Source: an uncultured Chloroflexia bacterium (GTDB lineage Bacteria; Chloroflexota; Anaerolineae; CG2-30-64-16). Taken from it: a DNA stretch of 64,000 bases. The stretch is from positions 416,001 to 480,000 of the forward strand of contig CAWEMM010000009.1 of the NCBI GenBank assembly GCA_963810095.1. Direction: 5' to 3'. The position numbers were made by a program, and so were the translations under genes. Shown here in pieces: positions 22,427-43,175 of the stretch (positions within the stretch are counted from its first letter, which is position 1; each line of letters starts with the position of its first letter). The notes beneath the pieces are model-generated. The model had not been told where the DNA came from. It ran no database searches and saw nothing but the letters and a program-made list of their open reading frames with translations.

Positions 22427-22468
22427 GACCTCTTCCATTCATCGGCGTCTCACGGAGATTACACCACT

Positions 22469-24581
22469 ATGGATATTGCCACCGCAGAGATGACGCAGGA
22501 CGCGGCCCACCGCGACGGCGGGCCACGAGAATCGAACCTTTCCCGCGAGCGTCTCCTGGAGCTGTTCTACAAGATGACCCTCACGCGTGCCTTCGAAGAG
22601 GCCGCGTGGAGCCAGTACGGCCTCGGTAAGGTACACGGGACGATGCACCTGTGCATCGGCCAGGAGGCTGTAGGCATTGGAGCCATTGCCGCGATCCGGC
22701 CCGACGACTACATCGTTTCCACCCACCGCGGCCATGCCCACGCCATCGGCAAGGGGCAAGACGTGCGCGAGATGATGGCCGAGCTGCTGGGCAAAGAGAA
22801 CGGCGTCTGCCACGGCCGGGGCGGCTCGATGCACATGGCCGACGTGAACCTGGGCAGCCTGGGCGCGAACGGCGTGGTGGGCGGGGGCTTGCCGCTGTCG
22901 GTCGGTGCGGGCCTTGCACTCAAGCTGAAGCACCCGACGGGTGATTCGCCGGTGGTGATCTGCTTCTTCGGCGACGGCGCCTCAAACGAGGGCGCGTTCC
23001 ACGAGTCGATCAACATGGCTTCCGTGTGGAAGCTCCCCGTGATCTACCTCTGCGAAAACAACCAGTACGGCATGTCGAACTCGGTCAAGAACGCCATGAG
23101 CGCCCGCCAGATGATCGACCGGGCCCCGGGCTACGGCATTCCCGGCAAGCAGGTTGACGGGATGGACGTGCTGGCGGTCTACGAGGCGATCAGCGAAGCG
23201 GCCGAGTACGTGCGAGCGGGCAACGGCCCCATCCTGATCGACGCGCTCACTTACCGCTACCTGGGGCACTCGAAGAGCGACCGGCAGCTTTATCGGACGA
23301 AGGACGAGGTCGAGGCCTGGAAGCAGCGCGATGCGATCGCCGCCTTCGAGCGTTACTTGCTGAGCGCCGGCGTTGCCTCACAGGACGAACTGGACGCCCT
23401 CAAGACGAAGGCGGACGCGGCCATCGAAGAAGCCATCGCGTACGGCGACGCCGGGCCCGAGCCGCAGGTGGCCCACCTCATGCGCGACGTATACGCCGAA
23501 GACCCGGCCGTACTGGCACAGCCGGAGCGGGTCTTGCCCAAGTGGGCGTCCGCGACATTCGGAACCGCGACCCGCATCAACCCGCCCGCAGGCGAGCGGG
23601 TGATCACCTACTCGGAGGCGCTGCGCGAGGCGATGGCCCAGGCGCTGTCCTCTGACCCGAAGGTATTCATGCTGGGCGAGGATATCGGCGTGTACGGCGG
23701 TGCATTCGGCGTCACAAAGGACCTGGTGGAGGAGTTCGGCCGCGACCGCGTGCGCGACACGCCGATCTCGGAAAACGCGATCATCGGGGCTGCCACCGGC
23801 GCGGCGGTGCTGGGCATGCGGCCGATCGCCGAAATGCAGTTCCAGGACTTCATCACGCTGGGTATGGAGCAGACGGTGCTCCAGGCCGCCAAGATTCGCT
23901 ACATGTTCGGCGGCAAGGCGACCGTGCCGATGGTCGTGCGGATGCCGGCCGGCTCGGGCACGGGCGCGGCTGCGCAACACTCGGAGAGCCTCGAATCCTG
24001 GTTCCTGAGCGTGCCGGGCATCAAGGTGGTGGCGCCTGCGAGCGCGTACGATGCCAAGGGGCTGCTGCTGGCCGCGCTGGCCGACGACAACCCGGTGATG
24101 TTCGTCGAGAACAAGCTGCTGTACAAGAGTAAGGGCGCAGTGCCCGTCGAGCCCTACATCGTGCCGCTGGGCAAGGCCGCGGTGCGCCGCCAGGGCCAGC
24201 ACGTGAGCATTGCGGCGACGTCGATCATGGTGCACCGGGCGCTCGAAGCGGCCAAGCAGCTGGAAGCCGAGGGCGATCGAGCTCGAGGTCATCGACCTGC
24301 GCACGCTGAAGCCGCTCGACAACGAGACGATCATCGCCTCGGTCAAGAAGACCGGGCGCCTGCTGGTGGTGCACGAGGCGCCGCTGTTCGGCGGCTTTGG
24401 CGGCGAAATTGCGGCCATGATTGCCCAAAGCGAGGCCTTCGCGTACCTGGAAGCGCCCATCGTGCGCCTCGGCGGCGAAGACGTGCCGATCCCGTACAAC
24501 CCGAAGCTGGAAAAGGCCGCCGTACCGCAGGTCGATAACATCGTCGCCGCCGCACGCAAGCTCGCCCGGACCGAGATCTAG
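22469..24581 (+). CDS. Fused ThDP-dependent dehydrogenase E1 alpha+beta, acetoin dehydrogenase (AcoAB)-like (+1 frameshift near 24275)
   Basis: [42 protein letters not shown]; beta part [14 protein letters not shown]; C-terminus [14 protein letters not shown] lies in the next frame. Confidence 0.9.
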
Positions 24582-24585
24582 AATG

Positions 24586-24671
24586 GGACGCAGATTGAAC
24601 TGATTCACTGATCTTCCTGATTTTATCAGCGAGGTCATGCGAATCGACTCAGTCAGTTAGATCAGGCGTCC
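24586..24671. repeat. 9-bp-periodic hairpin element, GGACGCAGAT family
   Basis: GGACGCAGATTGAACTGATTCACTGATCTTCCTGAT...AGTCAGTTAGATCAGGCGTCC. Confidence 0.7.
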
Positions 24672-24686
24672 TATTAGGGGTACGAA

Positions 24687-26141
24687 ATGCCAACACCCGT
24701 GATTATGCCCAAGTTCGAGATGACCCAGGAGACGGGCAAGGTCCTTGCGTGGCTCAAGCGTGAGGGCGAGCACGTGAACAAGGGCGAAGCACTTCTCGAA
24801 GTCGAGACCGACAAGGTCAACCAGGAAGTCGAGTCGCCTGCTACGGGCGTGCTCACCGGCATTTGCGCCGCGCCCGGGCAGGTAGTGCCGATCGCCGCTC
24901 CCATCGCCTACATTCTCAAGCCAGGGGAAACCGCTTCAGGTTTCTCTTCTCCTTCCTTGGGTGCGGCTGAGACGACCCCTGGCTCGGGCCGGGGCCCGGA
25001 GTCGTCCCAGCCGGCGCCGAGTCAGGCGGCCGACGATGCCCCGAAAGTCACACCGCTGGCCGCCCGCCTCGCGCAAGAGTATGGCGTCGACCTGTCCAAG
25101 GTCACGGGTACCGGCCCGATGGGGCGGATCACCCGGGAAGACGTGACGGCTGCATCCGCGGCGCAAGCTGAGGCCGGGCCCACGCCGCCCGTGGCCGACG
25201 GCAAGGTGCGCGCGGTTCCGGCAGCGCGACGGGTGGCTCGCGAGATGGGTGTCGACCTGCGCACGGTAAAGGGCACGGGGCCCGAGGGTCGGGTTCAACC
25301 GGAAGACGTGGCGGCCACGGGCGCGGCGCCGTCGACCCTGGCTGCATCCCAGCCCGTCGCTCCCGCCGTGCAGCCGGAACCGGCCGCTCCAGCGCTTCTG
25401 GACGCGAGTGCCGGGGGTCCCAAGGTGCGCAGGGTCGTGCCGCTCACAAATATCCGCAAGACGATTGCCGAGCGGATGGTGGCCAGCGTGCGCGAGGCGC
25501 CGCAGTTCAGCGTCAGCCTCGATGTGGACATGACCCGCAGCCTCGGCATCGTGGAAGATGTCAAGTCCGTCGTGCAAGGGCTGGCGCCGGACCCCAGCCG
25601 GCCGAAAATCACGCTCACTGCGCTGGTCGTCAAGGCCGTCGCCTATGGGCTGGCGGCACACCCGGCCGCAAACGCCTCGTATAGCACTGAAGGGATTGTC
25701 GAATACGAGGACGTCAACGTCGGCGTGGCCACCGCAATCGACTCTGGCCTCATTGTTCCGGTGGTACGCTCGGCAAACATTCTCGGCTTGCGGGGCATCG
25801 CCGTCGCATTGGGCGACCTGACGACCCGGGCACGTGAGGGCAGGCTGAAGCTGGACGACCTGACCGGCGGCACCTTCACCGTGTCCAACCTCGGAATGTT
25901 CGGGATCGAGACGTTCACCGCGATCCTGAATCCGCCGCAGGCCGCGATTCTGGCGGTCGGCAAGGTGACCAAGCGGGCTGTCGTGGTTTCGGCCCCCTCC
26001 GGGGAAGACAAGGTCGAGATCAAGCCCATGGCCTCGCTGACGCTCACCGCGGACCACCGCGTGCTCGACGGCGCCTCCGCAGCCCGGCTGCTGGCAACGA
26101 TCCAAAGCGTCCTGGAACACCCGGGACTCCTGCTGGAATAA
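24687..26141 (+). CDS. Dihydrolipoamide acyltransferase E2
   Basis: Lipoyl motif EVETDKVN; two subunit-binding domains (GTGPMGRI, GTGPEGRV); FTVSNLGMFG; DHRVLDG. Confidence 0.93.
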   Translation: MPTPVIMPKFEMTQETGKVLAWLKREGEHVNKGEALLEVETDKVNQEVESPATGVLTGICAAPGQVVPIAAPIAYILKPGETASGFSSPSLGAAETTPGSGRGPESSQPAPSQAADDAPKVTPLAARLAQEYGVDLSKVTGTGPMGRITREDVTAASAAQAEAGPTPPVADGKVRAVPAARRVAREMGVDLRTVKGTGPEGRVQPEDVAATGAAPSTLAASQPVAPAVQPEPAAPALLDASAGGPKVRRVVPLTNIRKTIAERMVASVREAPQFSVSLDVDMTRSLGIVEDVKSVVQGLAPDPSRPKITLTALVVKAVAYGLAAHPAANASYSTEGIVEYEDVNVGVATAIDSGLIVPVVRSANILGLRGIAVALGDLTTRAREGRLKLDDLTGGTFTVSNLGMFGIETFTAILNPPQAAILAVGKVTKRAVVVSAPSGEDKVEIKPMASLTLTADHRVLDGASAARLLATIQSVLEHPGLLLE

Positions 26142-26151: not shown

Positions 26152-26251
26152 GGACGCAGATTCAACTGATCGAACTGATCTACATGATCCTTCCTGCATA
26201 GGCTATCAGAAAGATCAGTTGAAATCAGTCATATCAGTCAGATCAGCGTCC
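26152..26251. repeat. 9-bp-periodic hairpin element, GGACGCAGAT family
   Basis: GGACGCAGATTCAACTGATCGAACTGATCTACATGAT...ATCAGTCATATCAGTCAGATCAGCGTCC. Confidence 0.7.
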
Positions 26252-26275
26252 CATTCCACATCAGTGAGGGGAATT

Positions 26276-27361
26276 ATGGCCGTACCTATGCTCCAGGTGG
26301 CGATGGACTACATCTCGCTGCCGCCCGCGCTCGCGATGGCCGTCAAGGTCGCGCCCGAGGTTGATATCATCGAGATCGGCACCCCGCTATGCAAGGCGGT
26401 CGGGCTAGACGGGATCCGCGCGATCCGCGACCTGGTCGGTCCAGACAAGCTGATCCTGGCCGACTTCAAAAGCCCCGACGTGGGTGGGCTGGAAGCGAAG
26501 ATGGCGTTCGATGCCGGCGCGGACATGATGACCGTGATCGGCGGCGCAGCCCTCGCTACGGTCGAGTCCGCATTGCAGGCGGCCAAGGAAGCACGCAAGG
26601 AAATGCTGATGGAGCTCACCGGCGTGCGCGATATCGTGGCCCGGGCAAAGGAATGGCGCCAGATCGGCGTGGAGCGGATGGTGTACCACCGGGGCTGGGA
26701 CGAGCAAACGTTCAACCGCCAGTGGGGCGACGACGACCGCAAGACGGTCCAGACGCTCATCGACATGGGCTTCAAGATCACCGTTACCGGCGGCATCAAC
26801 AAGAGCATGCTGCCCTTTTTCGCCTCGCTGGCCGTGTCCGTCGTCATCTGCGGTCGTGGCATTCGCGAGACGCCCGACCCGCGTCAGTCGGCGCACGAGT
26901 TCAAGGCGGAGATGACCCGCTTGTGGGGGAGCGGCGCCGCGGCGGCGCCTGCGTTTCCCGGTGGAAAAGTGGCCGCAGCCAGCGCCGCTGAAAACGCAGC
27001 CAAGGCCATCCGGTGGGGCGTGAGCGAAATGGGCTTGCTGCTGACCGCGGATGGTCGGGAGTGCCCGGGCTGTGATTCGTCGCAGCGCGTCTGCTGGGGC
27101 ACGCGCACCGAAGTCGTCGCACCGCAAGGCACACGGGCGGACGACCTCGTCAGCCGCATCGGCCAGTCCTTCGGACGCAGCGCGGCCTTCGGCAAAGTGA
27201 ATGACGCCGTCATCTTCCTCGACCCGGCCCAACTGCAGACGGGATCGATCAACGAGGTGCTCGAGTTGCTCCGTGCAGCGGGCAACGCAGCCCGGTCGGC
27301 CGGCGCAGCCATAGATGTGAGCGCCGGCGTGAATGTGGCAGACAAGATTCTGCGGAACTAA
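26276..27361 (+). CDS. ulaD: 3-keto-L-gulonate-6-phosphate decarboxylase / hexulose-6-P synthase family protein with ~140-aa C-terminal extension
   Basis: PMLQVAMD, DIIEIGT, LADFKSPD, ELTG, VYHR, DMGFKITVTGG and LWG parallel E. coli UlaD; the extension follows. Confidence 0.82.
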   Translation: MAVPMLQVAMDYISLPPALAMAVKVAPEVDIIEIGTPLCKAVGLDGIRAIRDLVGPDKLILADFKSPDVGGLEAKMAFDAGADMMTVIGGAALATVESALQAAKEARKEMLMELTGVRDIVARAKEWRQIGVERMVYHRGWDEQTFNRQWGDDDRKTVQTLIDMGFKITVTGGINKSMLPFFASLAVSVVICGRGIRETPDPRQSAHEFKAEMTRLWGSGAAAAPAFPGGKVAAASAAENAAKAIRWGVSEMGLLLTADGRECPGCDSSQRVCWGTRTEVVAPQGTRADDLVSRIGQSFGRSAAFGKVNDAVIFLDPAQLQTGSINEVLELLRAAGNAARSAGAAIDVSAGVNVADKILRN

Positions 27362-27403: not shown

Positions 27404-27477
27404 TTTATCCGCTTTGAGAAACCGGTTGCTCAACACTCGTTCGACGCCGTAGTCACCCCACACCGATGGAGGTCAAG

Positions 27478-27894
27478 ATGAGCCAGTCCAATATCGACCT
27501 GGTCCGCCGCTACTACCAGGTCACGAGCGGCGATCTCGCTGGGATCGAGGAGATCGTTTCCCCCGACTTCATCGACCATCACTTCCCCCCGACCCTGCCG
27601 CAGGGTCCTGAGGGCGTCAAGGCGTTCTTCAACGACGTCCTCGGCGCCTTCACCCACCGCCGAATTGACATCTTCGACATCTTCGCGGCGGAAGACCGCG
27701 TCGGCGTGCGCTTCGAGCTTGTCGCCAACCACAGCAGCGAGTTTGCCGGCTACAAGCCGTCTGGACAGCAGATTACATGCGGCGCCATGAGCATGTTTCG
27801 GGTAGAGGACGGCAAGCTGGCCGAGGGCTGGGAAACAGCCGACCTGTTCGGCCTGTTCAAGCAGCTCCAAGCCCTGCAGACCGTAGCCGCCTAG
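27478..27894 (+). CDS. SnoaL-like ester cyclase (NTF2 fold)
   Basis: NIDLVRRYY, PDFIDH, GPEGVK, AEDRVGVR, FRVEDGKLAEGW. Confidence 0.85.
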   Translation: MSQSNIDLVRRYYQVTSGDLAGIEEIVSPDFIDHHFPPTLPQGPEGVKAFFNDVLGAFTHRRIDIFDIFAAEDRVGVRFELVANHSSEFAGYKPSGQQITCGAMSMFRVEDGKLAEGWETADLFGLFKQLQALQTVAA

Positions 27895-27900: not shown

Positions 27901-27961
27901 AATACAAAGGCACAAAGGCACGACGGCATAGATAACCTTTGTGACGTAGTGTCGCCGTGTT
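27901..27961. repeat. Degenerate ACAAAGGC short-period hairpin element
   Basis: ACAAAGGCACAAAGGCACGACGGC...CTTTGTGACGTAGTGTCGCCGTGT. Confidence 0.55.
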
Positions 27962-27989
27962 GAGCGCTGCCGACGAAGGAAGGTCGAAG

Positions 27990-29093
27990 ATGATCAAGGT
28001 TTTTGAAGCACCTCGCAAGTATGTCCAGGGCGTGGGCGTGATGGCCGAGGCCGGCAGGTGGGTGGCTCCGCTGGGGAAGCGCGCGCTGATCGTGTGGGGC
28101 GCGACGGTCAAGCAGCAGGTCGGCGACACCCTTGTCGAGTCGCTGCTCGGCGCGGGCGTCGAGCCGATTTCGTACGAGTGTCGCGGCAACTGCACCCGCT
28201 CTCAGATTGCGGACGGCGTCGCGCTGGCCAAGGCCGAGCGCGCCGAAGTCGTCCTTGGCGTCGGCGGCGGCCGGTCCATCGACATGGCCAAAGCGATCGC
28301 CTGGGAGACGTGCAGCAAGGTCGTCTCCATCCCCACTGTCGCATCCAACGATGCCCCCACGAGCGCCGAAACGGTCTACTACACAGACGAGGGCGCGATG
28401 GACGGGTGGGGTGTTTGGCCCTACAACCCCGACGTCGTGTTGGTCGACACGCAGGTGGTCGTGGACGCACCGGTGGAATGGCTGGTGTCGGGCATGGGCG
28501 ATGCGGTCGCGACCTGGTTCGAGGCCGAGGCTGCGTACAAGGGCCGCCGCACGGCCATTGCGGGCGGCGTGTCCACCATCACAGCGCTTAAGCTGGCCGA
28601 GCTCTGCTACGACCTGCTGATGGAATACGGCGTGCAGGCCCGCCAGGACGCGGCCAACCACGTGGTCACCCCGGCCGTCGAGCGAATCGTGGAAGCCAAC
28701 ACCCTCCTTTCGGGTTTGGGCTTCGAGAGTTCGGGCGTGTGCACGGCCCACGCGGTGGCGAACGGGCTGACCGTCCGCAAGGAAACCGCCGGCTGCTCGC
28801 ACGGCCAGAAGGTTGCTTTTGGCCTGGCTGCCCAGCTCTGCCTGGACGAGGACATTACGCAGGCAGAGCGGCTCAAGGTCATCGACTGGATGGTGGCGGT
28901 GGGCTTGCCTGTCACCTTTGAAGAACTGGGCCTGGGGCACATCAGCCGCCAGGAAATCATGGACCTGGCGAGCCAGTTCGCCGGCGACGGCTCGATCGCG
29001 CATAACCACGTTCAGCAGGTCACGGCATTCGACATGTACAGCGCGCTCGTCGCGGCCGACTCGCTCGGCCACCAGCGACGCGCCTTGCAGTAA
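27990..29093 (+). CDS. gldA: Glycerol dehydrogenase family
   Basis: APRKYVQG, GVGGGRSID, PTVASNDAPTS, GMGDAVATWFEA, NTLLSGLGFES, HAVANG, HGQKVAFG. Confidence 0.88.
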   Translation: MIKVFEAPRKYVQGVGVMAEAGRWVAPLGKRALIVWGATVKQQVGDTLVESLLGAGVEPISYECRGNCTRSQIADGVALAKAERAEVVLGVGGGRSIDMAKAIAWETCSKVVSIPTVASNDAPTSAETVYYTDEGAMDGWGVWPYNPDVVLVDTQVVVDAPVEWLVSGMGDAVATWFEAEAAYKGRRTAIAGGVSTITALKLAELCYDLLMEYGVQARQDAANHVVTPAVERIVEANTLLSGLGFESSGVCTAHAVANGLTVRKETAGCSHGQKVAFGLAAQLCLDEDITQAERLKVIDWMVAVGLPVTFEELGLGHISRQEIMDLASQFAGDGSIAHNHVQQVTAFDMYSALVAADSLGHQRRALQ

Positions 29094-29153: not shown

Positions 29154-29474
29154 ATGGCACCAACACAGGTACAGATGACGGCGTTGGGGATGGTGGAGAC
29201 TCGCGGGCTCGTGGCCTCCATCGAGGCAGCCGACGCGATGAGCAAGGTCGCCTATGTCCGGCTCGTGGCGCAAGAGGAGATTGGGGGCGGATACGTCACC
29301 ATCTTCGTACGGGGCGAGGTGGGCGCGGTGCAGGCCGCAGTCGATGCCGGGGTGGCGGCTGCTAAGCGGGCCGGCGAGCTGGTGACGGCGCACGTGATCG
29401 CCAGGCCCCATGCGCTGGTCGAGAAGCTGCTGCCGACTGGCGAAACCAAAGTGGTTCGCGCGCTGGCAGACTGA
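29154..29474 (+). CDS. BMC-H hexameric shell protein (PduA/EutM/CcmK family)
   Basis: [39 protein letters not shown]. Confidence 0.95.
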
Positions 29475-29485: not shown

Positions 29486-30118
29486 ATGGACCTACGGACT
29501 TACGTGCTTATCGATTCCATGCAGCCGCAATATGCCGCATTGACAGGCATCCTGCTGCAGGGTGACACGCCGGTCGAGGGCATGGCGGAGATCTTCATGG
29601 AGCTTGCCCCTGCCAGCGACGTGTACGAAGTGCTCGACGCGGCGCTCAAGACCACCGACGTGCGCCCCGGCCTGCTCCGGGTAGAGCGCGAATACGGCAC
29701 GCTGGAAGTGCACGGGTTCTTCCAGGAAAACGTCAAGGTGGCCGGCCGCGAGGCGCTTGCCAAGTTCGGCCTGACCGAGGCGGACCGGTGGAAGCCGGAA
29801 GTCGTCTCTGTCAAGACCGTCACCGGGGTCGATCCCTGGGAGGCCCAGCTGGTGAACCAGGCCAGCCGCGGCGGCCTGCTGCTGAAGGGGCAGACGCTGT
29901 GCGTGATCGAGGTGGTGCCGGCGGCGTACGTCATGCTGGCGGCCAACGAGGCGGAAAAGGCTTCGAATATCACCCTCGTGCATTATCAGCCGGCGGGCAA
30001 GTTCGGCCGGCTCTACATCTCGGGCACCGAGTCTGCAGTACGGGTGGCGCGTGACGCGGCGGTAACGGCAGTCAACAGCCTGCCGGGCACTGTGCGGAGC
30101 GGCAAGGGCGCGGCCTAG
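29486..30118 (+). CDS. BMC-T permuted tandem-domain shell protein (CcmP/CsoS1D-like, BMC-Tdp)
   Basis: LRTYVLIDSMQPQ, VEREYGTLEVH, PAAYVMLAANEAEKA, FGRLYISG. Confidence 0.92.
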   Translation: MDLRTYVLIDSMQPQYAALTGILLQGDTPVEGMAEIFMELAPASDVYEVLDAALKTTDVRPGLLRVEREYGTLEVHGFFQENVKVAGREALAKFGLTEADRWKPEVVSVKTVTGVDPWEAQLVNQASRGGLLLKGQTLCVIEVVPAAYVMLAANEAEKASNITLVHYQPAGKFGRLYISGTESAVRVARDAAVTAVNSLPGTVRSGKGAA

Positions 30119-30174
30119 GCCGCACGCCAGCGTGGCTGGCGTTGGCGGAAGCGTCGACTCCGGAGGAGTCAATC

Positions 30175-30531
30175 GTGAAGACATTTATCACTGCTGAGGA
30201 CATCGAGACGCTGGCCGCTCAGGGCGTGCACGAGCTGACCGTGGATGAAGACACCGTGCTGACCGCCGTCGCTCGCGAGGCAGCGGCCCAGCGAGGGATC
30301 AGGCTGGTGGCGCCTGGCGCCAACAAGCCGGGTTTCTCTACTGCGGGCGAAGCCGGCGCGGAACCTGGTCTGGCTCCGGCGGCGGTGTCTGGCAAACCCA
30401 AAGGCTGCCAGCACGGCCCGCTCAGTGCGGGTGGCGGTGCGCCCCGCAGTGCAGCCGCGGCAGGCAGCCCGGTCGTGGACGAACTGATCGGCGCCGTCAA
30501 GCAGATGGCGCGTGTGCAGAGCACACGTTAG
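30175..30531 (+). CDS. BMC-associated small protein with a putative encapsulation peptide
   Basis: GGAGGAG RBS plus GTG; N-domain FITAEDI..VLTAVAREAA..RGIRL; Pro/Ala linker; C-terminal amphipathic VVDELIGAVKQM. Confidence 0.75.
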   Translation: MKTFITAEDIETLAAQGVHELTVDEDTVLTAVAREAAAQRGIRLVAPGANKPGFSTAGEAGAEPGLAPAAVSGKPKGCQHGPLSAGGGAPRSAAAAGSPVVDELIGAVKQMARVQSTR

Positions 30532-30562
30532 CGCTCCACGAGGCATAGACGGAGGCTTAAAC

Positions 30563-30865
30563 GTGATTATCGCAAAGGTCGTTGGCTCGGCCGTCGCTTC
30601 GATCAAGCTCGATGCGCTCCAATCCACCAAGCTCCTGGTAGTCCGTCCGGCGGACGCCCAGGGGAACGCAACCGGCGCGCCGCTGCTTGCAGTGGACCTG
30701 GTGGGTGCGGGCGAAGACGAGCTGGTCATGGTCAGCGAGGGCTCTTCGGCCCGGATGGCGTGTGCGGGCGCCCAGGGTAGTGATCGTTCGCCCGCCGACG
30801 CAGCCATTATCGGCATTCTTGATTCCCTGCGCTACTACGGGGATTTGGTTTACAGGAAGGCATGA
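30563..30865 (+). CDS. BMC-P pentameric vertex protein (EutN/CcmL family)
   Basis: AKVVGSAVASIK, KLLVV, AVDLVGAG, GSSAR, PADAAIIGILD. Confidence 0.95.
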   Translation: MIIAKVVGSAVASIKLDALQSTKLLVVRPADAQGNATGAPLLAVDLVGAGEDELVMVSEGSSARMACAGAQGSDRSPADAAIIGILDSLRYYGDLVYRKA

Positions 30866-30868: not shown

Positions 30869-31186
30869 ATGACGCAACCGAATGACACCCAGACCGAGAT
30901 GGACCCGGGCATGCGGGCGCTCGGCATGATCGAAACCAAGGGACTGATCCCCTGCATCGAGGCCGCAGACGCCATGGTGAAGGCGGCGAACGTCAAGCTG
31001 CTTCAGCGCCGGGCGATCGGCGCGGGTTACATGACCGTGATGGTGCGTGGAGACGTGGGCGCGGTGCGGACTGCGCTGGAAGCGGGCAGCCAGGCCGCCC
31101 GGCGGTTGGGCCAGGTCGTTTCCGTGCGCATCTTGCCAAGTCCGCATCTGGATCTCGAGCAGATCCTGCCCGAGAGCGTGGAGTAA
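30869..31186 (+). CDS. BMC-H hexameric shell protein, second copy
   Basis: ALGMIETKGL, EAADAMVKAANV, RGDVGAV. Confidence 0.95.
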   Translation: MTQPNDTQTEMDPGMRALGMIETKGLIPCIEAADAMVKAANVKLLQRRAIGAGYMTVMVRGDVGAVRTALEAGSQAARRLGQVVSVRILPSPHLDLEQILPESVE

Positions 31187-31190: not shown

Positions 31191-32039
31191 GTGGCAACCC
31201 CTCACGTGACACCGTCGGCTCTGCGGGCCAAAAAGAACCGCGGTCAGAAGATCGTGATGCTGACCGCATACGACTTCCCGATGGCCTCGTTCATCGAGCA
31301 GGCGGGCGCGGACATCGTCTTGGTCAGCGACGCGGTCGGCACGGTGGGCAACGGTCGTGGCGAGGCGGTGTCGGTGTCGGTCGACGAGATGATCTACCAC
31401 ACGCGCTCGGTTCGCAACGGCTGCAAGCGCTGCATGGTCATCACGACGATGCCGTTCGCCTCGTACAACACGCCTGACGACGCGCTGCGCACGGCGTCCC
31501 GGCTGATGAAGGAAGGCGGCGCGGACGGCGTCCATCTCGAAGGAACGCGCCGCGAAGCCTGCTGGATCGGCGACATGACGGCCGCGGGGATTCCGGTCAT
31601 GGGCCACGTGGGCGTCACCAAGCAGAAGATCATCGCGACCGGTCGAATCAAGCTGCCGGGGCAGGACGCCGCGAGCGCACGGGAGATCATCGCCGACTCG
31701 GTCGAGATGGCGCGCCAGGGTGCGTTTGCGCTCGTGCTCGAGTGCCTGCCCGTGGCGCTGGGCCGGATCATCACCGGCAGCCTGGACATCCCGACCATCG
31801 GGATCGGTTCCGGGCCTGACTGCGACGGACAAGCGCTGGTGACACAGGACATGCTGGGACTGTTCAAGGAACTGTCGCCGCGCTTCCTGAAGGTCTATGC
31901 GGACCTGGCCGGTGTCACTGTCTCGGCGCTGACCCAGTTCCGCAAGGAAGTCGAAGGCGGAACCTTCCCGGCGCCCGAACACACGTATGCGATCGACGAA
32001 GGCGAGCTGCAGAAGCTGTTGTCTCAGCTACGCGGCTAG
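31191..32039 (+). CDS. panB: Ketopantoate hydroxymethyltransferase (PanB) paralogue with altered active site
   Basis: MLTAYD, MIYH, MPFASY, PVMGHVG, VLEC, PTIGIGSGPDCDGQ; deviations at canonical D84, K112 and S46. Confidence 0.8.
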   Translation: MATPHVTPSALRAKKNRGQKIVMLTAYDFPMASFIEQAGADIVLVSDAVGTVGNGRGEAVSVSVDEMIYHTRSVRNGCKRCMVITTMPFASYNTPDDALRTASRLMKEGGADGVHLEGTRREACWIGDMTAAGIPVMGHVGVTKQKIIATGRIKLPGQDAASAREIIADSVEMARQGAFALVLECLPVALGRIITGSLDIPTIGIGSGPDCDGQALVTQDMLGLFKELSPRFLKVYADLAGVTVSALTQFRKEVEGGTFPAPEHTYAIDEGELQKLLSQLRG

Positions 32040-32116: not shown

Positions 32117-32867
32117 ATGGCGGAATCTCTCAACGGGAAGGTGGCGGTCATCACGGGCGTGGGCTCCGGGTTCGGGAAGGCCACAGCCGAGTTGTTCGCC
32201 AGCAAGGACCAGGCCGGCCTGGTGCTGATCGACAGAAACGAGACAGCCCTCGCCGAAACCGCGGAGTGCTGCAAGGTCGCCGGCTCGAAGGTCGTGGCGA
32301 TTCAGGCGGACGTGACGAAGCCGGAAACTTTTGAGAAGGCGCTGGCCGCAGCGCTGGACAACTGGGGCAAGGTGGATTTCCTCATCAACTACGCCGGGCG
32401 GTGCGCTCAAGGTGGCGCCCATCGAGGAGATGGATGATGAGATCAACCGCAAGATCATCGACCTGAACCTCACCAGCGTGATCATGAGCTGCCGGACCTT
32501 CACCCCCCAATTCAAGAAGCAGGGTTTCGGCAAGATCATCAACGTCTCCAGCGCCTGCGACCGCCGGTGCTGGCAGGGTTGGTCGGTCTACTCGGCCGCC
32601 AAGGCCGCGGTGAACACGTTCACCAAGTGCCTGTACACGGAGCTCCGGCCGCACGGCGTTGCCGTCATGTTGCTCGTGCCCGGCGGCTCGAACACCGGCT
32701 TCCAGGCGGCTGCAGAGGGCGTGGGCAAGTTCGACTGGGACGAAGAGCTGGCCGTCCGGCCCGAGCACTTCGCCGACATGGTGTACCAGGCCTGCGCGCT
32801 CAGCAAAGGCGGCTGCGTGGTCGAGATGCTCGTCTATGGGCTGGCCCAGGATGTGAGCGGCTTCTAG
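32117..32867 (+). CDS. Short-chain dehydrogenase/reductase (+1 frameshift near 32397)
   Basis: TGVGSGFG, ADVT, INYAG, then IINVSS and YSAAK in the next frame. Confidence 0.88.
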
Positions 32868-33032
32868 CCAACGCGGAACCAGGAGGCGCGCTCGCCGGCA
32901 GACCACCCGTCCAAGCCTTGCCTCCACAGTGCGAGCTCCACTCTATCGCGGTTAGCGGGGATCGTCCCCGAGCAGTTGAGCGCCCAACCCGGCGCTCGAA
33001 AAGGTCTCTCAGCAAGACAGGAGGAGTCTCAA

Positions 33033-35183
33033 GTGAAGAAGCAGTTGTTCACCCTGTTGGGCGTGCTGGTCGTGATCAGCATGCTCCTCACGGCCTGCGG
33101 CGGCGCTGCGCCAGCGCCCGCGGCCGCCCCGACCGAGGCCCCGAAGGCCGCGCCGACCGCGGCCCCGGCCCCCACCGAGGCCCCGAAGGTCGAGGCCACG
33201 ACCGCCCCCGCGCCTGCGGCCGGCGAACTGAAGCCGGCGACGGACAAGCCGATGAAGATTGCGTTCTTCGTGTCTGACATGACGAACGTGTTCCACCAGG
33301 GTCAGGCGACCGAAGCGCAGAAGTACGCCAAGGATAAGTACGGGGCCGAGGTGTTCATCTTCGATGGCAAGTCCGACTCGGCGACGATGACGGCGAACGT
33401 GGATCAGATCATGGCCCAGGGCATGGATGCGGCGACGCTGCACATCTGGGACTATGAGACGGTCAAGCCGGCGGTCGAGGAGATGCTGAAGAAGGGCATC
33501 GTGCTGACGTCGTTCTTCAGCCCGTTGGGCGACAGCGGCATCCCGGTTGCGCGCTCGGACGAGAAGGGTGTCTCGTTTGAGATGGGTGCGCAGATGGCGA
33601 AGGAGTGGAAGGCGGCGCATCCCGACAAGCCGATCGTGATGATGCAGTTGGGTTGGCCGAACCACACCGAGGTGAAGTCGGGTCGTACGGATCCGTTCGT
33701 AGCGGGCGTGAAGTCGGTGGACCCGACGGCGACGGACCTGGGCTGCCAGGATGCGTCGAAGGGTGCGGATGCGGCGAAGCAGATCATCAAGGACATCGTG
33801 ACGCAGCATCCGGAAGTCAACCTGATCTACTCGGAAGCGTCGAACCTGACGGTTGGGACGATGGCCGGGCTGACCGAGGCGGGCCGCGGCAAGTACGCCG
33901 ATGGCAAGCCGCTGACGGAAATCGTGGCGTCGGTGGACTTCGACGAGTCGGAGTACAAGCAGGTCTACGACCCGAACAGCTCGCTGAAGTACTCGATGGG
34001 TCTGCCGCCCATCGAGACGGGCCAGGGCCGCATCGACCTGATCATGGACGTCGCCGCAGGCAAGCTGCCGATGGCCTCGCAGCCGGCTGCGGAAGAATTC
34101 TACAAGGCTTACAACGTCAACCACCTGACCATGCCGCAGGCGGATGCAGCCGCCTGGCTGAACAAGCAGTTCGGCACCAGCATCGCCGCACCTGCGGCTG
34201 CCGCACCTATGGCTGGCGACTTCAAGCCGGCGACGGACAAGCCGATGAAGATTGCGTTCTTCGTGTCTGACATGACGAACGTGTTCCACCAGGGCCAGGC
34301 GACCGAAGCGCAGAAGTACGCCAAGGATAAGTACGGGGCCGAGGTGTTCATCTTCGATGGCAAGTCCGATTCGGCGACGATGACGGCGAACGTGGATCAG
34401 ATCATGGCCCAGGGCATGGATGCGGCGACGCTGCACATCTGGGACTATGAGACGGTCAAGCCAGCGGTCGAGGAGATGCTGAAGAAGGGCATCGTGCTGA
34501 CGTCGTTCTTCAGCCCGTTGGGCGACAGCGGCATCCCGGTTGCGCGCTCGGACGAGAAGGGTGTCTCGTTCGAGATGGGTGCGCAGATGGCGAAGGAGTG
34601 GAAGGCGGCGCATCCCGACAAGCCGATCGTGATGATGCAGTTGGGTTGGCCGAACCACACCGAGGTGAAGTCGGGTCGTACGGATCCGTTCGTAGCGGGC
34701 GTGAAGTCGGTGGACCCGACGGCGACGGACCTGGGCTGCCAGGATGCGTCGAAGGGTGCGGATGCGGCGAAGCAGATCATCAAGGACATCGTGACGCAGC
34801 ATCCGGAAGTCAACCTGATCTACTCGGAAGCGTCGAACCTGACGGTTGGGACGATGGCCGGGCTGACCGAAGCGGGCCGCGGCAAGTACGCCGATGGCAA
34901 GCCGCTGACGGAAATCGTGGCGTCGGTGGACTTCGACGAGTCGGAGTACAAGCAGGTCTACGACCCGAACAGCTCGCTGAAGTACTCGATGGGTCTGCCG
35001 CCCATCGAGACGGGCCAGGGCCGCATCGACCTGATCATGGACGTCGCCGCAGGCAAGCTGCCGATGGCCTCGCAGCCGGCCTCGGAGGAGTTCTACAAGG
35101 CTTACAACGTCAACCACCTGACCATGCCGCAGGCGGATGCAGCCGCCTGGCTGAACAAGCAGTTCGGCACCAACATCAAGTAA
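33033..35183 (+). CDS. Sugar ABC substrate-binding lipoprotein with two near-identical binding domains
   Basis: GGAGGAG plus GTG; LLTAC lipobox; PTEAPK linker; RbsB-like domain present twice. Confidence 0.9.
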   Translation: MKKQLFTLLGVLVVISMLLTACGGAAPAPAAAPTEAPKAAPTAAPAPTEAPKVEATTAPAPAAGELKPATDKPMKIAFFVSDMTNVFHQGQATEAQKYAKDKYGAEVFIFDGKSDSATMTANVDQIMAQGMDAATLHIWDYETVKPAVEEMLKKGIVLTSFFSPLGDSGIPVARSDEKGVSFEMGAQMAKEWKAAHPDKPIVMMQLGWPNHTEVKSGRTDPFVAGVKSVDPTATDLGCQDASKGADAAKQIIKDIVTQHPEVNLIYSEASNLTVGTMAGLTEAGRGKYADGKPLTEIVASVDFDESEYKQVYDPNSSLKYSMGLPPIETGQGRIDLIMDVAAGKLPMASQPAAEEFYKAYNVNHLTMPQADAAAWLNKQFGTSIAAPAAAAPMAGDFKPATDKPMKIAFFVSDMTNVFHQGQATEAQKYAKDKYGAEVFIFDGKSDSATMTANVDQIMAQGMDAATLHIWDYETVKPAVEEMLKKGIVLTSFFSPLGDSGIPVARSDEKGVSFEMGAQMAKEWKAAHPDKPIVMMQLGWPNHTEVKSGRTDPFVAGVKSVDPTATDLGCQDASKGADAAKQIIKDIVTQHPEVNLIYSEASNLTVGTMAGLTEAGRGKYADGKPLTEIVASVDFDESEYKQVYDPNSSLKYSMGLPPIETGQGRIDLIMDVAAGKLPMASQPASEEFYKAYNVNHLTMPQADAAAWLNKQFGTNIK
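33231..35172 (+). repeat. Intragenic direct repeat, 2 x ~949 bp, period 993 bp
   Basis: 33231-34179 and 34224-35172 differ at only about 10 positions that I could see, mostly synonymous. Confidence 0.95.
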
Positions 35184-35200
35184 CGACCAGTTAGCACGCT

Positions 35201-35297
35201 TTGCCACGGAGAGCACAGAGGGCGCAGACGCGGCTGAGAGCGCAGCAACTCTCTGCCTCTCGCCCACCCTCTGAGACCTTTGTGATCTCTGTGGCAA
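35201..35297. repeat. 9-bp-periodic hairpin element, GCCACGGAGAGCACAGAG family
   Basis: TTGCCACGGAGAGCACAGAGGGCGCAGA...CTCTGAGACCTTTGTGATCTCTGTGGCAA. Confidence 0.7.
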
Positions 35298-35328
35298 CCT
35301 TGCATCCTGTCCCGGGAGGGGGCTTGGC

Positions 35329-36892
35329 ATGGAACTGACTGATAGTGGCTCGGGACGAGACAACGTTCTCGAAATTCGGGACCTGGTCAAGGAATTCCCC
35401 AGCGTGCGGGCGGTCAACAGTGTCAGTTTTGACATCAAGCGGAATACCGTTCACTGCCTCGTTGGCGAGAACGGCGCAGGGAAGAGTACGCTGATCAAGA
35501 TTCTGACAGGCGCATACCAGCGCACCAGCGGCAAGATCCTGCTGAACGGCGAAGAGTATGCGGCGGCCAGCACGAAGGAAGCCAAAGAGAAGGGCATCAG
35601 CACCCTGTTCCAGGAACTGAACGTGGTCGACCAGCTGACCGTGGAAGAAAATCTGACGCTGGGCATGGAGGACACCCGATTTGGGTTCCTGCGGAAGACC
35701 GACAAGATCAACAAGATCGTCAGCGTGATGAACAGCCTCGAGCCGTCCATCCGTCCGCAGCAGCTGGTTGCCGAGCTCAGCGTTGCGAAGAAGCAGATCG
35801 TGGAGATCGCCAAAGCGGTCGCCACCGAGTCGGACATTATCATCATGGACGAGCCGACCGCCGCCTTGTCCGAGGGCGAAATCGCCCGGCTCTTCAAGAT
35901 CATCCGCGGCTTGCGCGAACGCAATGTCACCGTGGTCTACATCTCGCACCGGCTCGACGAGATCTTCGAGCTCGGCGACTACGTCACGGTCATGCGCGAC
36001 GGCCGGCACATCGACACCAAGCCCATCTCCCAGGTCAAGGACCGGTCGGAGCTGATCAAGATGATGATCGGCCACACCGTCTTCGAGCAGTACACGCCGC
36101 GCATGCGGGACTGCGACGACCTGATCCTCGAGGTGCGCCACCTCTCCAATCACAAGCTCCAGGACGTCTCGTTCAGAGGTGCCCAAGGGCGAGATCGCCG
36201 GGTTCTACGGCCTGGTGGGTGCGGGCAAAACCGAGTTGGCCCGGGCCATTTACGGCGCGGACCCGTATACCGGGGACATCATTTTCAAGGGCAAAAAGCT
36301 GCCGCAGTCGCCCGACCGTGTTATCGAGGCGGGCATCGCATTGGTGCCCGAGGAGCGGCGCTCGCAGGGCCTCTTCACGTTGCTGACCATCCGGGGCAAC
36401 GTTCCGGTCATGAATATGAAGAAGATCTCGCGCGGCGGCTTCGTCAGCGGAGCCCACGAGCGCGAGGTCACGCTCGAATATATCGACAAGCTCAGGATTG
36501 CCACCAGCAGCATCGAGAAGGAAGCCGCGCAACTGTCGGGCGGCAACCAGCAGAAGGTGGTGCTCTCTAAGTGTCTTTTCGCCGATGCCGACCTGCTCAT
36601 GCTGGACGAACCCACCCGCGGCATCGACGTGGGCGCAAAGAGCGAGATCTACAGCATCATCCGCCAGCTTGCCGCCGACGGCAAGTCAATCCTGATCTTC
36701 TCCTCGGAGCTCCCCGAGGTCATGAACATCTGCGATACGATCTACCTGCTGTATGACGGGAGCCTAAAGGAGACGATTCGCAACGGCTGCGACGTCGACA
36801 GTGAGATGATCATGCATGCGGTGTCCGGCGTGGCAGACGCGGATGGCACGGCCACAGCTGCCGGCGCCATCAGGGCGACGGAGGGAGAATGA
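35329..36892 (+). CDS. Sugar ABC ATPase, RbsA/MglA-type tandem NBD (+1 frameshift near 36175)
   Basis: GENGAGKST, MDEPTAAL, YISHRL; second half VPEERR, LSGGNQQKV, DEPTRGIDVGAK. Confidence 0.92.
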
Positions 36893-37923
36893 GCGTCCAA
36901 ACAACTACGCCCGCGCAGAAGGCGCGTGCGACCAGCCGGATGAGCAACGAGACGTTCATCACGCTCTTCATGGCCGGCGTGCTCCTGGTCGTGTTCCTGG
37001 TGGCGTGTCTCTTCGTGCCAAACTTCTTCACCCCGAAGAACATCGTCAACATCCTGACGAACAACTGGTACATCGTCATTATCGGCATCGGCGTAACGTT
37101 CCTCCTGATCACGGGCAACTTCGACATGTCGGTGGGCGGAGTCATCGCCTTGACCGGCGTACTGTCCGTGTGGTTCGTCCAGGGGGTGAACGTCTCGCGC
37201 AACGTACTGGCGAACGGCCTGGGCCTGCCCTACCCGGTCGCCATTGCGCTCGCCCTGCTGTGTGCGATGGGCGTCGGTGGCCTCAATGCGTTCTTCATCG
37301 CGAAACTTAAGGTGCCCTCCATTATCGTCACCCTGGGCACCGCGATGCTCGCCCGGGGCACTGCCCAGGTCATTACCCAGGGCGCACAGCGCAACACGAG
37401 CCTGCCTGACATTTTCGGGGTCGTCGGCAACGCCGCGATCCCCGGCACGACCGTGAAGGTTTCCGTGCTGATTATGATTGCCCTGATGATCGCGGCCTAC
37501 ATCTTCGAGCGCAGGACGGTGCCCGGCCGGCGGACGTACCAGATTGGCGCCAACCCGGAGGCCGCCCGGCTGTCCGGCATCAAGGTGACGCGGCAGCTCA
37601 CGCTGCTGTACATCCTGAGCGCGCTGCTCGCCGGCATCACCGGCATCCTCCTGACGTCCGAATACAAAGCCGGCCTGTCGAGCCGCGCCGTGGGCTACGA
37701 GTTCGACGCCCTGGTCGTGACGCTGCTGGGCGGCGTCAGCATCGCAGGCGGCTTTGGATCGGTGCTCGGCATGTTCGTCGGCGCAATCCTGCTCTCGGTG
37801 ATGACGACCGCCGCCACGGGCCTGCTGCTCTCGCCCGACTGGCAGTTCACGCTGAAGGCCCTCGTGACCTTTGCCGCAATTCTGGCGCAGCGGTGGGCAC
37901 TTGATCGCCGCAGCAGGGGCTAA
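36889..37923 (+). CDS. Sugar ABC permease (RbsC-like)
   Basis: GNFDMSVG, IIVTLGT, IGANPEAARLSGI, YEFDAL..LLGGVSI. Confidence 0.93.
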   Translation: MSVQTTTPAQKARATSRMSNETFITLFMAGVLLVVFLVACLFVPNFFTPKNIVNILTNNWYIVIIGIGVTFLLITGNFDMSVGGVIALTGVLSVWFVQGVNVSRNVLANGLGLPYPVAIALALLCAMGVGGLNAFFIAKLKVPSIIVTLGTAMLARGTAQVITQGAQRNTSLPDIFGVVGNAAIPGTTVKVSVLIMIALMIAAYIFERRTVPGRRTYQIGANPEAARLSGIKVTRQLTLLYILSALLAGITGILLTSEYKAGLSSRAVGYEFDALVVTLLGGVSIAGGFGSVLGMFVGAILLSVMTTAATGLLLSPDWQFTLKALVTFAAILAQRWALDRRSRG

Positions 37924-38018
37924 AGGCGTAGCTGAGCGCCCCACCGGGTAACGGCCGAGCGGCTAGCCCGCCTGGTGCGCTCCGCAAGTGTGGGCGGACG
38001 AACGAAAGGGAGATACTC

Positions 38019-39063
38019 ATGACAACAAGCCAAGTGTCGATGCGTAAGACTCAGGGTCAGAACGACCGGTCAGACGCTTTGCGTTCGGCAGTGAAGAAAT
38101 ACTATATCTACGCGGTCCTGCTGGTTATCGTGATCGTCTTTAGCCTGGCCAAGGTAAACACAGTGGGGTTGTTCGGCCGCGGCGCCTTCCTTAGCCCCGA
38201 CAGCGTCATCAACATGCTGCGCATCTCGGCCCCGATCCTTACCTTAAGCGGCGCGTTCACCCTGCTGATGATCTCCGGCTACATCGACCTCTCCGTCGGC
38301 AGCGCGATGAGCCTCGCCGCTGTCGTGTTCAGCTTGCTGATCCTCAACCGGGTGCCTTTCATCCTGGCCGTTGCCGCGACCCTGGTTGTCGGCATCGGGA
38401 TGGGCTTGCTGAACGGGTTCAACGTGATGAAGCTGCGGATCACCCCCGTTATCGCGACGCTGGTCACGCTCAATCTCTTCAAGGGCATCGCACTGCTGAT
38501 CGTACCGGACGGCACCTCGGCCATCAAGAGCACGGCGGTGCAGAAAATGCCCGCGATGATTAACTACTATGCCCGGCAACCCGTGATTCTCGGTCTGCCG
38601 CTGGCCTTCTTCGTCGCTATCGCCGTGATCGTCGGGCTGGTCATCGTCCAGCGGAAGACCATCCTGGGCAAATATGCCGCGGCGATTGGCGGCAACCGCA
38701 TGGCAGCGGAATTGTCGGGCATCAGCCCCGTCAAGTACGTCTGGATCCTCTACGTGATCGTTGGGTTATTCGCCGCCGCAGCGGGCGTCGCGCCGCGCCA
38801 GTTACATGTCGCTCGGCGATCCACTCTCCGGTGATGGCATGGAGACGGACTGCATCATCGCCGTGCTGCTTGGTGGCACGTCCTTCGCCGGCGGGGAGGG
38901 CTCGGTCGCCAAAACCATGGTGGCGGCCCTGATCCTCATGTGCGTCACGACAGGCCTGATGACGGTGATTCCCGCCTATTGGCAGACTGTGGCCAAGGGC
39001 AGCGTCCTGGTGTTCGCCGTCGTGCTGAACCACGTACTCGTGCGGCGGCGGGTGTCGGCATAA
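38019..39063 (+). CDS. Sugar ABC permease 2 (+1 frameshift near 38793)
   Basis: GYIDLSVG, IATL, IGGNRMAAELSGI; next frame AVLLGGTSFAGGEGS. Confidence 0.9.
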
Positions 39064-43152: not shown

Positions 43153-43175
43153 CCCACCGTTCAGAGGAGCTTATC

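Follow-up and report, generated by a model that had tools for sequence, protein, structure and literature searches.

A PanB-family paralogue with a remodelled active site, encoded directly behind bacterial microcompartment shell genes: a putative cargo-type enzyme of an Ula-like sugar-phosphate locus in Anaerolineae

Ketopantoate hydroxymethyltransferase (KPHMT, PanB), with solved structures from E. coli (1M3U) and M. tuberculosis (1OY0), is a (beta/alpha)8-fold enzyme of pantothenate synthesis. In the E. coli enzyme, D45, D84 and E114 are reported by the structure papers of 2003 to bind the metal (Mg2+) and S46 and K112 to contact the 2-oxo acid, with E181 as the proposed base. A literature search for these residue roles gave nothing usable, and PMC4814558 is silent on those residues in the parts consulted. 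The present work concerns a paralogue of this family, further called PanBx, which is encoded at 31191..32039 (+) of a 64,000-nt stretch of DNA from an uncultured Chloroflexia bacterium (Chloroflexota; Anaerolineae; assembly GCA_963810095.1, contig CAWEMM010000009.1, positions 416,001 to 480,000). This whole stretch is called the window, and residue numbering is that of E. coli KPHMT unless query numbering is stated. PanBx is a remodelled PanB-fold protein, co-inherited with a microcompartment shell, an enzyme resembling UlaD and hexulose-phosphate synthase (HPS), and an adaptor-like protein; we consider it fairly probable that it has left pantothenate synthesis for a role as an enzyme inside the shell.

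Two further described systems are close to this locus. The Ula/Sgb pathway for L-ascorbate and 2,3-diketo-L-gulonate employs UlaD/SgbH, UlaE/SgbU and UlaF/SgbE. To our knowledge, neither a shell operon nor a PanB-like enzyme is part of this system in E. coli. Among the bacterial microcompartments (BMCs), the SPU sugar-phosphate metabolosomes are defined by DeoC (pfam01791), RpiB (pfam02502) and an aldehyde dehydrogenase (AldDh), and BMC types lacking AldDh are classed as BUF, according to the parts of the BMC catalogue consulted (Sutter et al. 2021, PMC8217296).

PanBx is encoded by an intact frame of 282 amino acids (aa) with a GTG start. It matches PF02548 (Pantoate_transf) over its whole length with 301.1 bits (cut-off 28.7) and scores above the curated NCBIfam cut-offs for PanB (NF001452, 296.9 vs. 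272 bits; TIGR00222, 269.6 vs. 207.55 bits). Its identity to solved PanBs is 32-43% in fold alignments. An AlphaFold2 model built with 24 orthologues (pLDDT 86.2, pTM 0.87) predicts the PanB fold as well, the best Foldseek matches being the PanB structures 1o68, 3vav and 1m3u (TMq 0.77-0.83, TMt 0.86-0.89).

The active site is where PanBx departs from its family. A previous interpretation of the letters alone (the sequence-only reading) had quoted the motifs LVSDAVG, VITTMPF, GVHLEGT and GVTKQ, and all four are found in the translation, at aa 44-50, 83-89, 113-119 and 141-145, respectively. Numbering was fixed by HMMER alignment of PanBx to E. coli KPHMT (1m3u_A), in which query residues D47, A48, T86, H115, E117, H139 and E184 correspond to D45, S46, D84, K112, E114, H136 and E181. 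This alignment bears out the residue changes that had been proposed: D45, E114, H136 and E181 are kept, and D84 is replaced by T, K112 by H and S46 by A. Two further sites are replaced, G44 by S (query S46) and P141 by K (query K144), and the same remodelled site is evident in alignments to the solved PanBs 1oy0, 3ez4, 3vav and 1o66. T57A and R74N are also fixed in the PanBx clade, which brings the number of replaced near-invariant family positions to seven. The presumed set of metal ligands is thus only partly retained, D45 and E114 being kept and D84 being T in 46/46 clade loci. Both presumed contacts of the 2-oxo acid are replaced, S46 by A (V in one locus) and K112 by H in 46/46 loci.

These substitutions are shared by homologues. 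All 120 of the best database relatives (120/120; 70-94% identity) have the PanBx signature pattern. In the set of 121 sequences formed by these relatives and the query, S46, D47, A48, H115, E117, H139, K144 and E184 (query numbering), among them the proposed base E181 and H136 of the E. coli enzyme, are identical in 121/121 and T86 in 120/121. In a scan of genomes, one for each species, 80 loci were recovered. The nine key positions read SDATHEHKE in 45 of the 46 loci at 58-90% identity and SDVTHEHKE in the other one (L035); the 33 canonical loci, at 40-46% identity, have GDSDKEHPE in 32 cases and GDTDKEHPE in one. The canonical residues are themselves strongly conserved (111 sequences: G44 100%, S46 98%, D84 98%, K112 99%, P141 98%), and in 45 members of the clade these five positions are occupied by S, A, T, H and K with 98-100% conservation each. 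Comparison of the same 45 and 111 sequences revealed 16 clade-specific positions; for seven of them (G44, S46, T57, R74, D84, K112 and P141) conservation among the canonical sequences amounts to 87-100%. Several clade-specific positions lie in two low-confidence loops of the PanBx model (aa 50-59 and 220-229).

The three closest orthologues gave dN/dS values of 0.076, 0.084 and 0.141 against the window gene; in more distant PanBx pairs dS is near or at saturation. Judged by these values, PanBx is under purifying selection. Decay or sequencing error, which had been named as another possible source of the substitutions, is ruled out by the conservation together with dN/dS. One broken copy of PanBx was encountered (L052, 10001-10847; also G002 C8:62948-63736), with a frameshift, two TGA stops and 56% identity over the match, in a genome of the same genus in which the BMC locus is otherwise conserved.

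A maximum-likelihood tree of 110 rows was calculated by a 'quick' method, so its support values call for some caution. Representatives were limited to 255-320 aa and thinned to every third plus three variants, and L009 (cut by a contig end), L030 (N-terminally cut) and the frameshifted L052 were dropped. The 45 BMC-linked rows form a single branch apart from canonical PanB (SH-aLRT 99, length 0.57), so that a BMC-linked clade sharing T84/H112, for which the sequence-only reading had proposed a tree, is indeed recovered as monophyletic. The combination T84/H112 occurs in 0/79 representative proteins of 255-320 aa from a library of 1.8 billion proteins. Three of these 79 (P0125, P0126 and P0132) are the variants in the tree and are sisters of the BMC clade (SH-aLRT 98). 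They have S44, A46 and K or R141, with A, T or S at position 84 and, unlike the PanBx clade with its H112, E or I at position 112. The rebuilt site is older than the BMC clade, since sister variants outside a BMC context share S44/A46/K141 and are without D84 and K112. We regard PanBx as a functionally new clade within a family of known enzymes.

The context of the sister variants comes from one metagenome scan with a single informative locus, L085 (4701-8274). This locus harbours two tandem non-canonical PanB-like genes with the signatures SDASEEHKE and GNAHKEHAE. The pair follows a TRAP transporter and is followed by a gene resembling that of methylenetetrahydrofolate reductase (MTHFR), a ferredoxin, an aldehyde:ferredoxin oxidoreductase and FolB. 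S44, A46 and K/R141 are common to PanBx and to the three variants and the L085 pair, and D84 and K112 are gone in both; unlike the shell-linked PanBx clade, L085 has no shell genes. It may represent a folate-linked catabolic use of PanB-type enzymes. When the L085 protein was searched against 401 Chloroflexota genomes, only canonical PanBs were found among the five examined loci from other genomes, the sixth locus being the window gene.

Linkage to the shell is strict. Upstream of PanBx, all on the + strand, lie genes for a first BMC-H shell protein (29154..29474; NF053791 and NF012018, 107-111 bits, and PF00936 in the genome search), a double-domain, CcmP-like BMC-T (29486..30118; PF00936, and NF053796 CcmP with 204.9 bits, below the cut-off of 340), a family-less adaptor-like protein further called unk129 (30142..30531), a BMC-P pentamer of the EutN/CcmL family (30512..30865; PF03319, 84.6 bits) and a second BMC-H (30869..31186; PF00936, 95.6 bits). 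The start of PanBx 4 nt behind a BMC-H stop had been noticed before and is confirmed: the gap between the stop of the second BMC-H and the GTG is 4 nt, and the start is preceded by a GGAG at a distance of 8 nt. This spacing indicates translational coupling between PanBx and the BMC-H gene that ends the shell operon. The order BMC-H, BMC-T, unk129, BMC-P, BMC-H, PanBx was found by tblastn with the window proteins in 44/44 clade loci with upstream DNA (L030 and L050 begin at PanBx, leaving 44 of the 46 clade loci informative on this point), and shell matches were found in 0/33 canonical panB loci.

The 46 species-level genome loci with PanBx are mostly from Anaerolineae of anaerobic habitats, and many metagenome proteins add to them. 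The metagenome-assembled genomes concerned are mostly Anaerolineae/Chloroflexota; a small number bear the labels Desulfobacterales or delta-proteobacterial, Spirochaetales or Bacteroidota. Elsewhere in the window genome (contig C11:285981-290076) lies another BMC locus, unrelated to this one, in which PF00936 is matched three times.

Pfam scans of chosen open reading frames (ORFs) of the window (~10-54 kb) and of five related loci showed neither an aldehyde dehydrogenase (PF00171) nor a phosphotransacylase (PF06130). As far as these scans reach, the locus does not fit the classical core of an aldehyde-oxidising metabolosome, AldDh plus phosphotransacylase. With the described BUF and SPU types, in the parts of the catalogue consulted, it shares a shell of BMC-H, BMC-T(dp) and BMC-P; without AldDh in the scanned ORFs it resembles BUF, and like SPU it appears to handle sugar phosphates. 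It differs from SPU in that SPU is defined by DeoC, RpiB and AldDh, while no AldDh is present in the scanned ORFs of the PanBx locus (PMC8217296). PF02548, PF00215 and PF00676 are absent from the HMM table of the catalogue (PMC8217296, Supplementary Data 6). A literature search combining BMC terms with KPHMT, PanB, UlaD, HPS and BUF2 yielded no paper that ties these families to a natural BMC, as judged by the listings. The BMC type of the PanBx loci appears to be undescribed. A CO2-channelling, carboxysome-like reading of the locus was set aside on thermodynamic grounds.

Pantothenate synthesis is provided for elsewhere in the genome. A Pfam search of the genome gave four Pantoate_transf matches: PanBx, two canonical panB copies (with GDS, D, K and P at the key positions; 391 and 343 bits) and one divergent gene. 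The sole Pantoate_ligase (panC) match lies on contig 11, ~1.1 kb from the first canonical panB. Among the window ORFs scanned by Pfam (~10-54 kb) neither panC nor panD was found, in agreement with the sequence-only reading, and the second canonical panB for which that reading had proposed to look exists in two copies, one beside panC. The genome thus has no need of PanBx for pantothenate, having two canonical panB copies of which one stands in a panB-panC pair. Intact PanBx at at least 74% identity was found in 9/41 related genomes, including 6/8 of the genus, and one more genome has a copy with two stops; each of these nine PanBx genomes also has canonical panB matches at 37-43% identity. The fourth PanB-like gene of the window genome (C15:62129-63043, locus L004:1405-2319; 139 bits) is highly divergent, with key positions GD-YLMHGE, and adjoins a short-chain dehydrogenase/reductase (SDR) and a protein with a trigger-factor C-terminal domain.

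It is hard to maintain that PanBx still functions as a ketopantoate hydroxymethyltransferase and that its gene is a surplus panB which lies in a BMC operon by chance. It passes both NCBIfam cut-offs for PanB, and its relatives are named 3-methyl-2-oxobutanoate hydroxymethyltransferase in public sources and automated annotation. However, PanBx has a different residue at every one of five to seven positions whose conservation among 111 canonical sequences is 87-100%, it stands in a separate clade whose genes accompany a BMC shell instead of panC, the genome has its two canonical copies with one panB-panC pair, and the shell linkage is strict. We regard this explanation as highly improbable; the earlier claim that PanBx is not the pantothenate enzyme is supported by the separate BMC-linked clade and by the canonical panB and panC elsewhere.

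The sequence-only reading had also put PanBx forward as the signature enzyme of this BMC. Its strict shell linkage agrees with that, but PanBx is not alone in this role: an UlaD/HPS-family enzyme is co-inherited in 22/22 long loci. Neighbours were counted in the 22 clade loci of at least 16 kb, all of which have the UlaD-like gene. In the window this gene (26219..27361, +; PF00215, 114.5 bits), the only UlaD/HPS-like gene in the genome, encodes a probable co-cargo enzyme of the OMPdecase suprafamily with a C-terminal domain of ~140 aa containing a CPGC...C motif; this domain is present in 21/22 long loci. The enzyme scores below cut-off with NF009832 (200.5 bits), with the HPS model TIGR03128 (169.5 bits) and with the equivalog model of UlaD, 3-keto-L-gulonate 6-phosphate decarboxylase (KGPDC; 194.8 bits vs. 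cut-off 294). Compared to E. coli KGPDC (1kv8) it keeps E33, D62, K64, D67, E112, H136 and T169, while R139 is replaced by W. Its orthologues have W139 in 39/39, E112 in 38/38 and T169 in 36/39. Positions 112, 139 and 169 are those altered in solved KGPDC chains carrying E112D/R139V/T169A. Such mutants were reportedly built to raise hexulose-phosphate synthase activity.

The PanBx loci resemble the Ula/Sgb pathway in having UlaD-, UlaE- and UlaF-like enzymes, and a FGGY kinase with either a GAT-type (galactitol/ascorbate-family) phosphotransferase system (PTS) or an ABC importer. They differ in the UlaD-like enzyme, with its R139W exchange, its CPGC domain and its scores below the UlaD and HxlA cut-offs, and in that the pathway genes surround a BMC shell operon together with the gene of a PanB-like enzyme. 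UlaE-like genes were counted in 17 of the 22 long loci, UlaF-like genes in 13, SDR genes in 15 and ABC binding proteins in 17; three other long loci have the GAT-type PTS instead of the ABC importer. The UlaF-like 4-epimerase of related loci scores 282.7 bits, above cut-off. Taken by its annotations, the neighbourhood encodes an Ula/Sgb-type route to D-xylulose-5-phosphate, with import, SDR, kinase and UlaD-, UlaE- and UlaF-like steps.

The adaptor-like unk129 has, in an alignment of 24 orthologues, a conserved N-terminal domain of 45 aa, a Pro/Ala linker, a KPxGCQHGP motif with an invariant Cys and a C-terminal amphipathic helix which resembles an encapsulation peptide. No family was found for unk129, for the C-terminal domain of the UlaD-like enzyme or for unk428 (an ORF further downstream) in Pfam (E up to 5) and NCBIfam, and the best hit of a PDB profile search had E 1.1. 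In locus L026 (8301-9320) the UlaD-like enzyme carries the N-terminal domain of unk129 as an N-terminal fusion. The fusion protein lacks the CPGC domain (26933-27361 in the window counterpart) as well as the GCQ motif, and its C-terminus is a helix resembling that of unk129. Because of this fusion, a single case, it is suggested that unk129 tethers cargo to the shell. The CPGC...C domain and the Cys of unk129 hint at an intermolecular metal or disulfide link for cargo tethering, since both Cys motifs are absent in the sole locus with the fusion.

A complex of PanBx with unk129 was predicted with 'weak support' (score 0.58, median of three runs, against 0.00 for the best of three controls; contact agreement at least 26%, partner pLDDT at least 56). 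The mark for this score was reached by 58/80 solved complexes and 2/110 mismatched pairs, with only seven of those 80 complexes and both passing mismatches at a score of 0.60 or lower; custom alignments were used for PanBx-unk129, so that these benchmark counts hold only roughly. The predicted binding would also suit a PanBx that is a catalytically dead, oligomeric PanB scaffold, nucleating or organising the cargo core. D84 and K112 are indeed lost, and PanB proteins form large oligomers, solved entries holding 5-10 chains. Against such a scaffold, the replacement residues S44, T84, H112 and K141 are polar and invariant (45/45 or 46/46), the remaining catalytic residues are invariant too, and dN/dS is 0.08-0.14. 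As both sets of residues are invariant, the site looks re-tuned and not relaxed, and we judge a dead scaffold to be very unlikely.

We infer that PanBx is a new cargo-type enzyme in an Ula-like sugar-phosphate microcompartment with no AldDh gene in the scanned ORFs, and that it and one other enzyme would occupy the lumen. Its gene invariably follows the shell genes directly, and PanBx probably performs new carbon-carbon chemistry inside the organelle. The hydroxymethyltransferase or (retro)aldolase for a non-carboxylate substrate that the sequence-only reading had proposed is a reasonable suggestion for this chemistry. PanBx would still form a metal-stabilised enolate or enediolate and make or break a C-C bond, with its substrate held otherwise than by a 2-oxo-acid carboxylate. 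K141 and S44 may stand in for K112 and S46, and H112 for D84 at the metal. For every scheme discussed here we infer the chemistry of PanBx from sequence.

The scheme that we prefer, although we put it forward tentatively and as less likely than not, is a relay of formaldehyde between the UlaD/HPS-like enzyme and PanBx. Formaldehyde-level carbon is the sole ligand class common to HPS-type and PanB-type enzymes, and shells usually confine aldehydes; the scheme follows from these two considerations. The UlaD/HPS-like enzyme would split a 3-keto-hexose (or hexonate) 6-phosphate into L-xylulose-5-phosphate and a one-carbon (C1) unit, the L-xylulose-5-phosphate would pass on to UlaE and UlaF, and PanBx would capture the formaldehyde-level carbon onto tetrahydrofolate (THF) or an enolisable acceptor inside the shell. 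With the C1 unit captured there, free formaldehyde would never reach the cytoplasm. In favour of the relay are the loss of R139 in the UlaD-like enzyme, the relationship of the SDR to polyol and sugar dehydrogenases (see below) and the sister locus L085, where PanB variants stand beside a MTHFR-like gene and FolB. Furthermore, an archaeal Fae-Hps fusion family exists (NF009833). According to its family description this bifunctional enzyme likewise pairs an HPS-family enzyme with a formaldehyde-to-pterin enzyme. Unlike the proposed PanBx system it is a fusion and not a set of co-encapsulated proteins, and its cofactor is tetrahydromethanopterin in place of folate; between Fae and PanB there is no relationship.

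Several points weigh against the relay, against PanBx as cargo or against its activity. The UlaD-like enzyme keeps the KGPDC-type residues E112 and T169, scores higher on the UlaD models than on HxlA and may simply release CO2. No folate or C1 gene was found among the Pfam-scanned BMC-linked ORFs and ORF clusters, the link to MTHFR is a single sister locus, and THF must enter the shell or be recycled within. The SMP-30 lactonases of some loci suggest sugar acids rather than polyols as substrates. With D84 and K112 gone, PanBx could also have lost catalysis. As to cargo status, the prediction of the PanBx-unk129 complex is weak. In the model PanBx ends in a C-terminal helix (aa 270-281, with conserved I268, E272, K275 and L276) that has no linker before it. 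Like the 4-nt gap behind the BMC-H gene and the weakly predicted complex, this helix is a hint of cargo status; it is no clear encapsulation peptide, since C-terminal tails also occur in the canonical PanBs of the window genome. That the locus specifies a microcompartment whose function is to confine formaldehyde, which would be the first natural one of this kind, with an UlaD/HPS-type lyase, a PanB-derived C1-transfer enzyme and no AldDh core, is offered as a speculation, somewhat less likely still than the relay itself.

Another source of C-C chemistry is suggested by an accessory module upstream of the UlaD-like gene (22421..26141, +; PF00676, PF02779, PF00198, PF00364), encoding pyruvate dehydrogenase (PDH)-like E1 (fused alpha-beta, 22421-24538) and E2 (24687-26141). 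PanBx might be a class-II-type aldolase acting on a 4-hydroxy-2-oxo acid, such as a 2-keto-3-deoxy sugar acid, and releasing an aldehyde and pyruvate in the shell; the PDH-like E1/E2 would then turn pyruvate or another 2-oxo acid into acyl-CoA and replace the missing AldDh core. PanB chemistry is formally an aldol reaction of this 4-hydroxy-2-oxo-acid type. E1/E2 directly follows PanBx in L032, L034, L036 and L039 and precedes the shell operon in the lineage of the window, the alpha part of E1 reaches 376 bits against a PDH equivalog cut-off of 393.85, and some loci have aldehyde-reducing enzymes, of GldA type in the window and aldo-keto reductases in L026, L030 and L048. However, E1/E2 is adjacent in just 6/22 long loci, and the residues replaced in PanBx include the presumed carboxylate contacts S46 and K112 and the metal ligand D84. 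The scanned loci showed no sugar-acid dehydratase as a source of a 2-keto-3-deoxy acid, and the invariant partnership with the UlaD-like enzyme is left unexplained. This aldolase is in our view an unlikely explanation.

About equally doubtful is a PanBx that keeps the enolisation half-reaction only, as a proton-transfer enzyme of the tautomerase, epimerase or isomerase type or as a decarboxylase, working on an Ula intermediate without C1 transfer. The intermediate might be the phosphate of an ascorbate-type enediol lactone or of a 3-keto sugar acid, and PanBx would prepare or consume the substrate of the UlaD-like enzyme. Such a role agrees with the retention of E181, H136, D45 and E114 alongside the loss of the carboxylate-binding residues. 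The PTS-type loci L032, L034 and L036 have UlaD-like and UlaE-like enzymes, and the scanned ORFs of L034 include neither an UlaG-type lactonase nor an SDR, leaving a step open beside PanBx. Moreover, the next Foldseek matches of the PanBx model after the PanB structures are 2-methylisocitrate lyases and oxaloacetate decarboxylase (3b8i), so that the ICL/PEPM superfamily, to which these predicted relatives belong, includes a decarboxylase. Proton transfer, however, gives the shell no obvious purpose and has no precedent in the PanB family, and the sister locus L085 points to folate-linked chemistry.

Of the remaining genes of the window locus, those at 27466-38834 and 40553-47373 described below as parts of the operon are likewise on the + strand, unk428 being listed by position. 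A SnoaL-like protein (27466..27894; PF07366) and a GldA-type Fe-alcohol/glycerol dehydrogenase (27957..29093; PF00465, NF006941 394.6 bits) lie between the UlaD-like and shell genes, a pair found in the window and L009 only. Directly downstream of PanBx is the SDR oxidoreductase (32117..32867), in two overlapping frames with PF00106 on both pieces. Its orthologue in L025 is intact (249 aa), and among solved structures the SDR is closest to xylitol, sorbitol, sorbose and glucose dehydrogenases. Then follows a sugar ABC transporter (32976..38834; PF13407, PF00005, PF02653) with a Peripla_BP_4 binding protein, a frame-split ATPase (35329-36892) and two permeases. The binding protein has no close solved relative, and its best match, ribose-binding protein with 34.9 bits, gives no clue to the ligand. 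Between the permeases and the UlaE-like gene lies unk428 (39169..40455), an ORF of 428 aa that belongs to no family in Pfam or NCBIfam and has tblastn matches also in L010 and L052.

The UlaE/SgbU-like L-ribulose-5-phosphate 3-epimerase (40553..41428; NF009689, 285 bits vs. cut-off 200) precedes the FGGY sugar kinase in three frame-split pieces (41612..43152; PF00370, PF02782). A region annotated by Pfam (43122..47373) with a HAD phosphatase, a SorC-type regulator, a Fe-ADH_2 fragment (frame-split Fe-ADH, 45015-45632) and an SMP-30/gluconolactonase comes next. The frame splits of the SDR, ABC ATPase, FGGY kinase and Fe-ADH genes are probably assembly indels and not pseudogenes, because orthologues are intact in related loci. 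Downstream of the locus, a 958-aa protein with TPR and CHAT domains is encoded (51284-54160). In three Desulfobacterales-type loci (L050:1643-2749 and two more) PanBx is followed by a methyltransferase-like gene of the URO-D/MtaA family with a weak match to methylcobamide:CoM methyltransferase models; unk428 was considered as a relative of this gene and proved unrelated on comparison.

The PanBx clade marks a widespread microcompartment type with two conserved core enzymes from families without a known BMC tie, as far as the literature search shows. The clade is invisible in annotations because pipelines name it 3-methyl-2-oxobutanoate hydroxymethyltransferase. What a shell without an AldDh gene in its locus confines becomes a testable question. 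If PanBx is active, S44/A46/T84/H112/K141 would define a sequence route for re-tuning a vitamin-pathway enzyme, and PanBx would be a candidate natural biocatalyst for formaldehyde or C-C chemistry. If the formaldehyde relay is true, fermentative Anaerolineae could shorten a hexose-level phosphate to L-xylulose-5-phosphate without prior oxidation of the C1 unit to a carboxylate.

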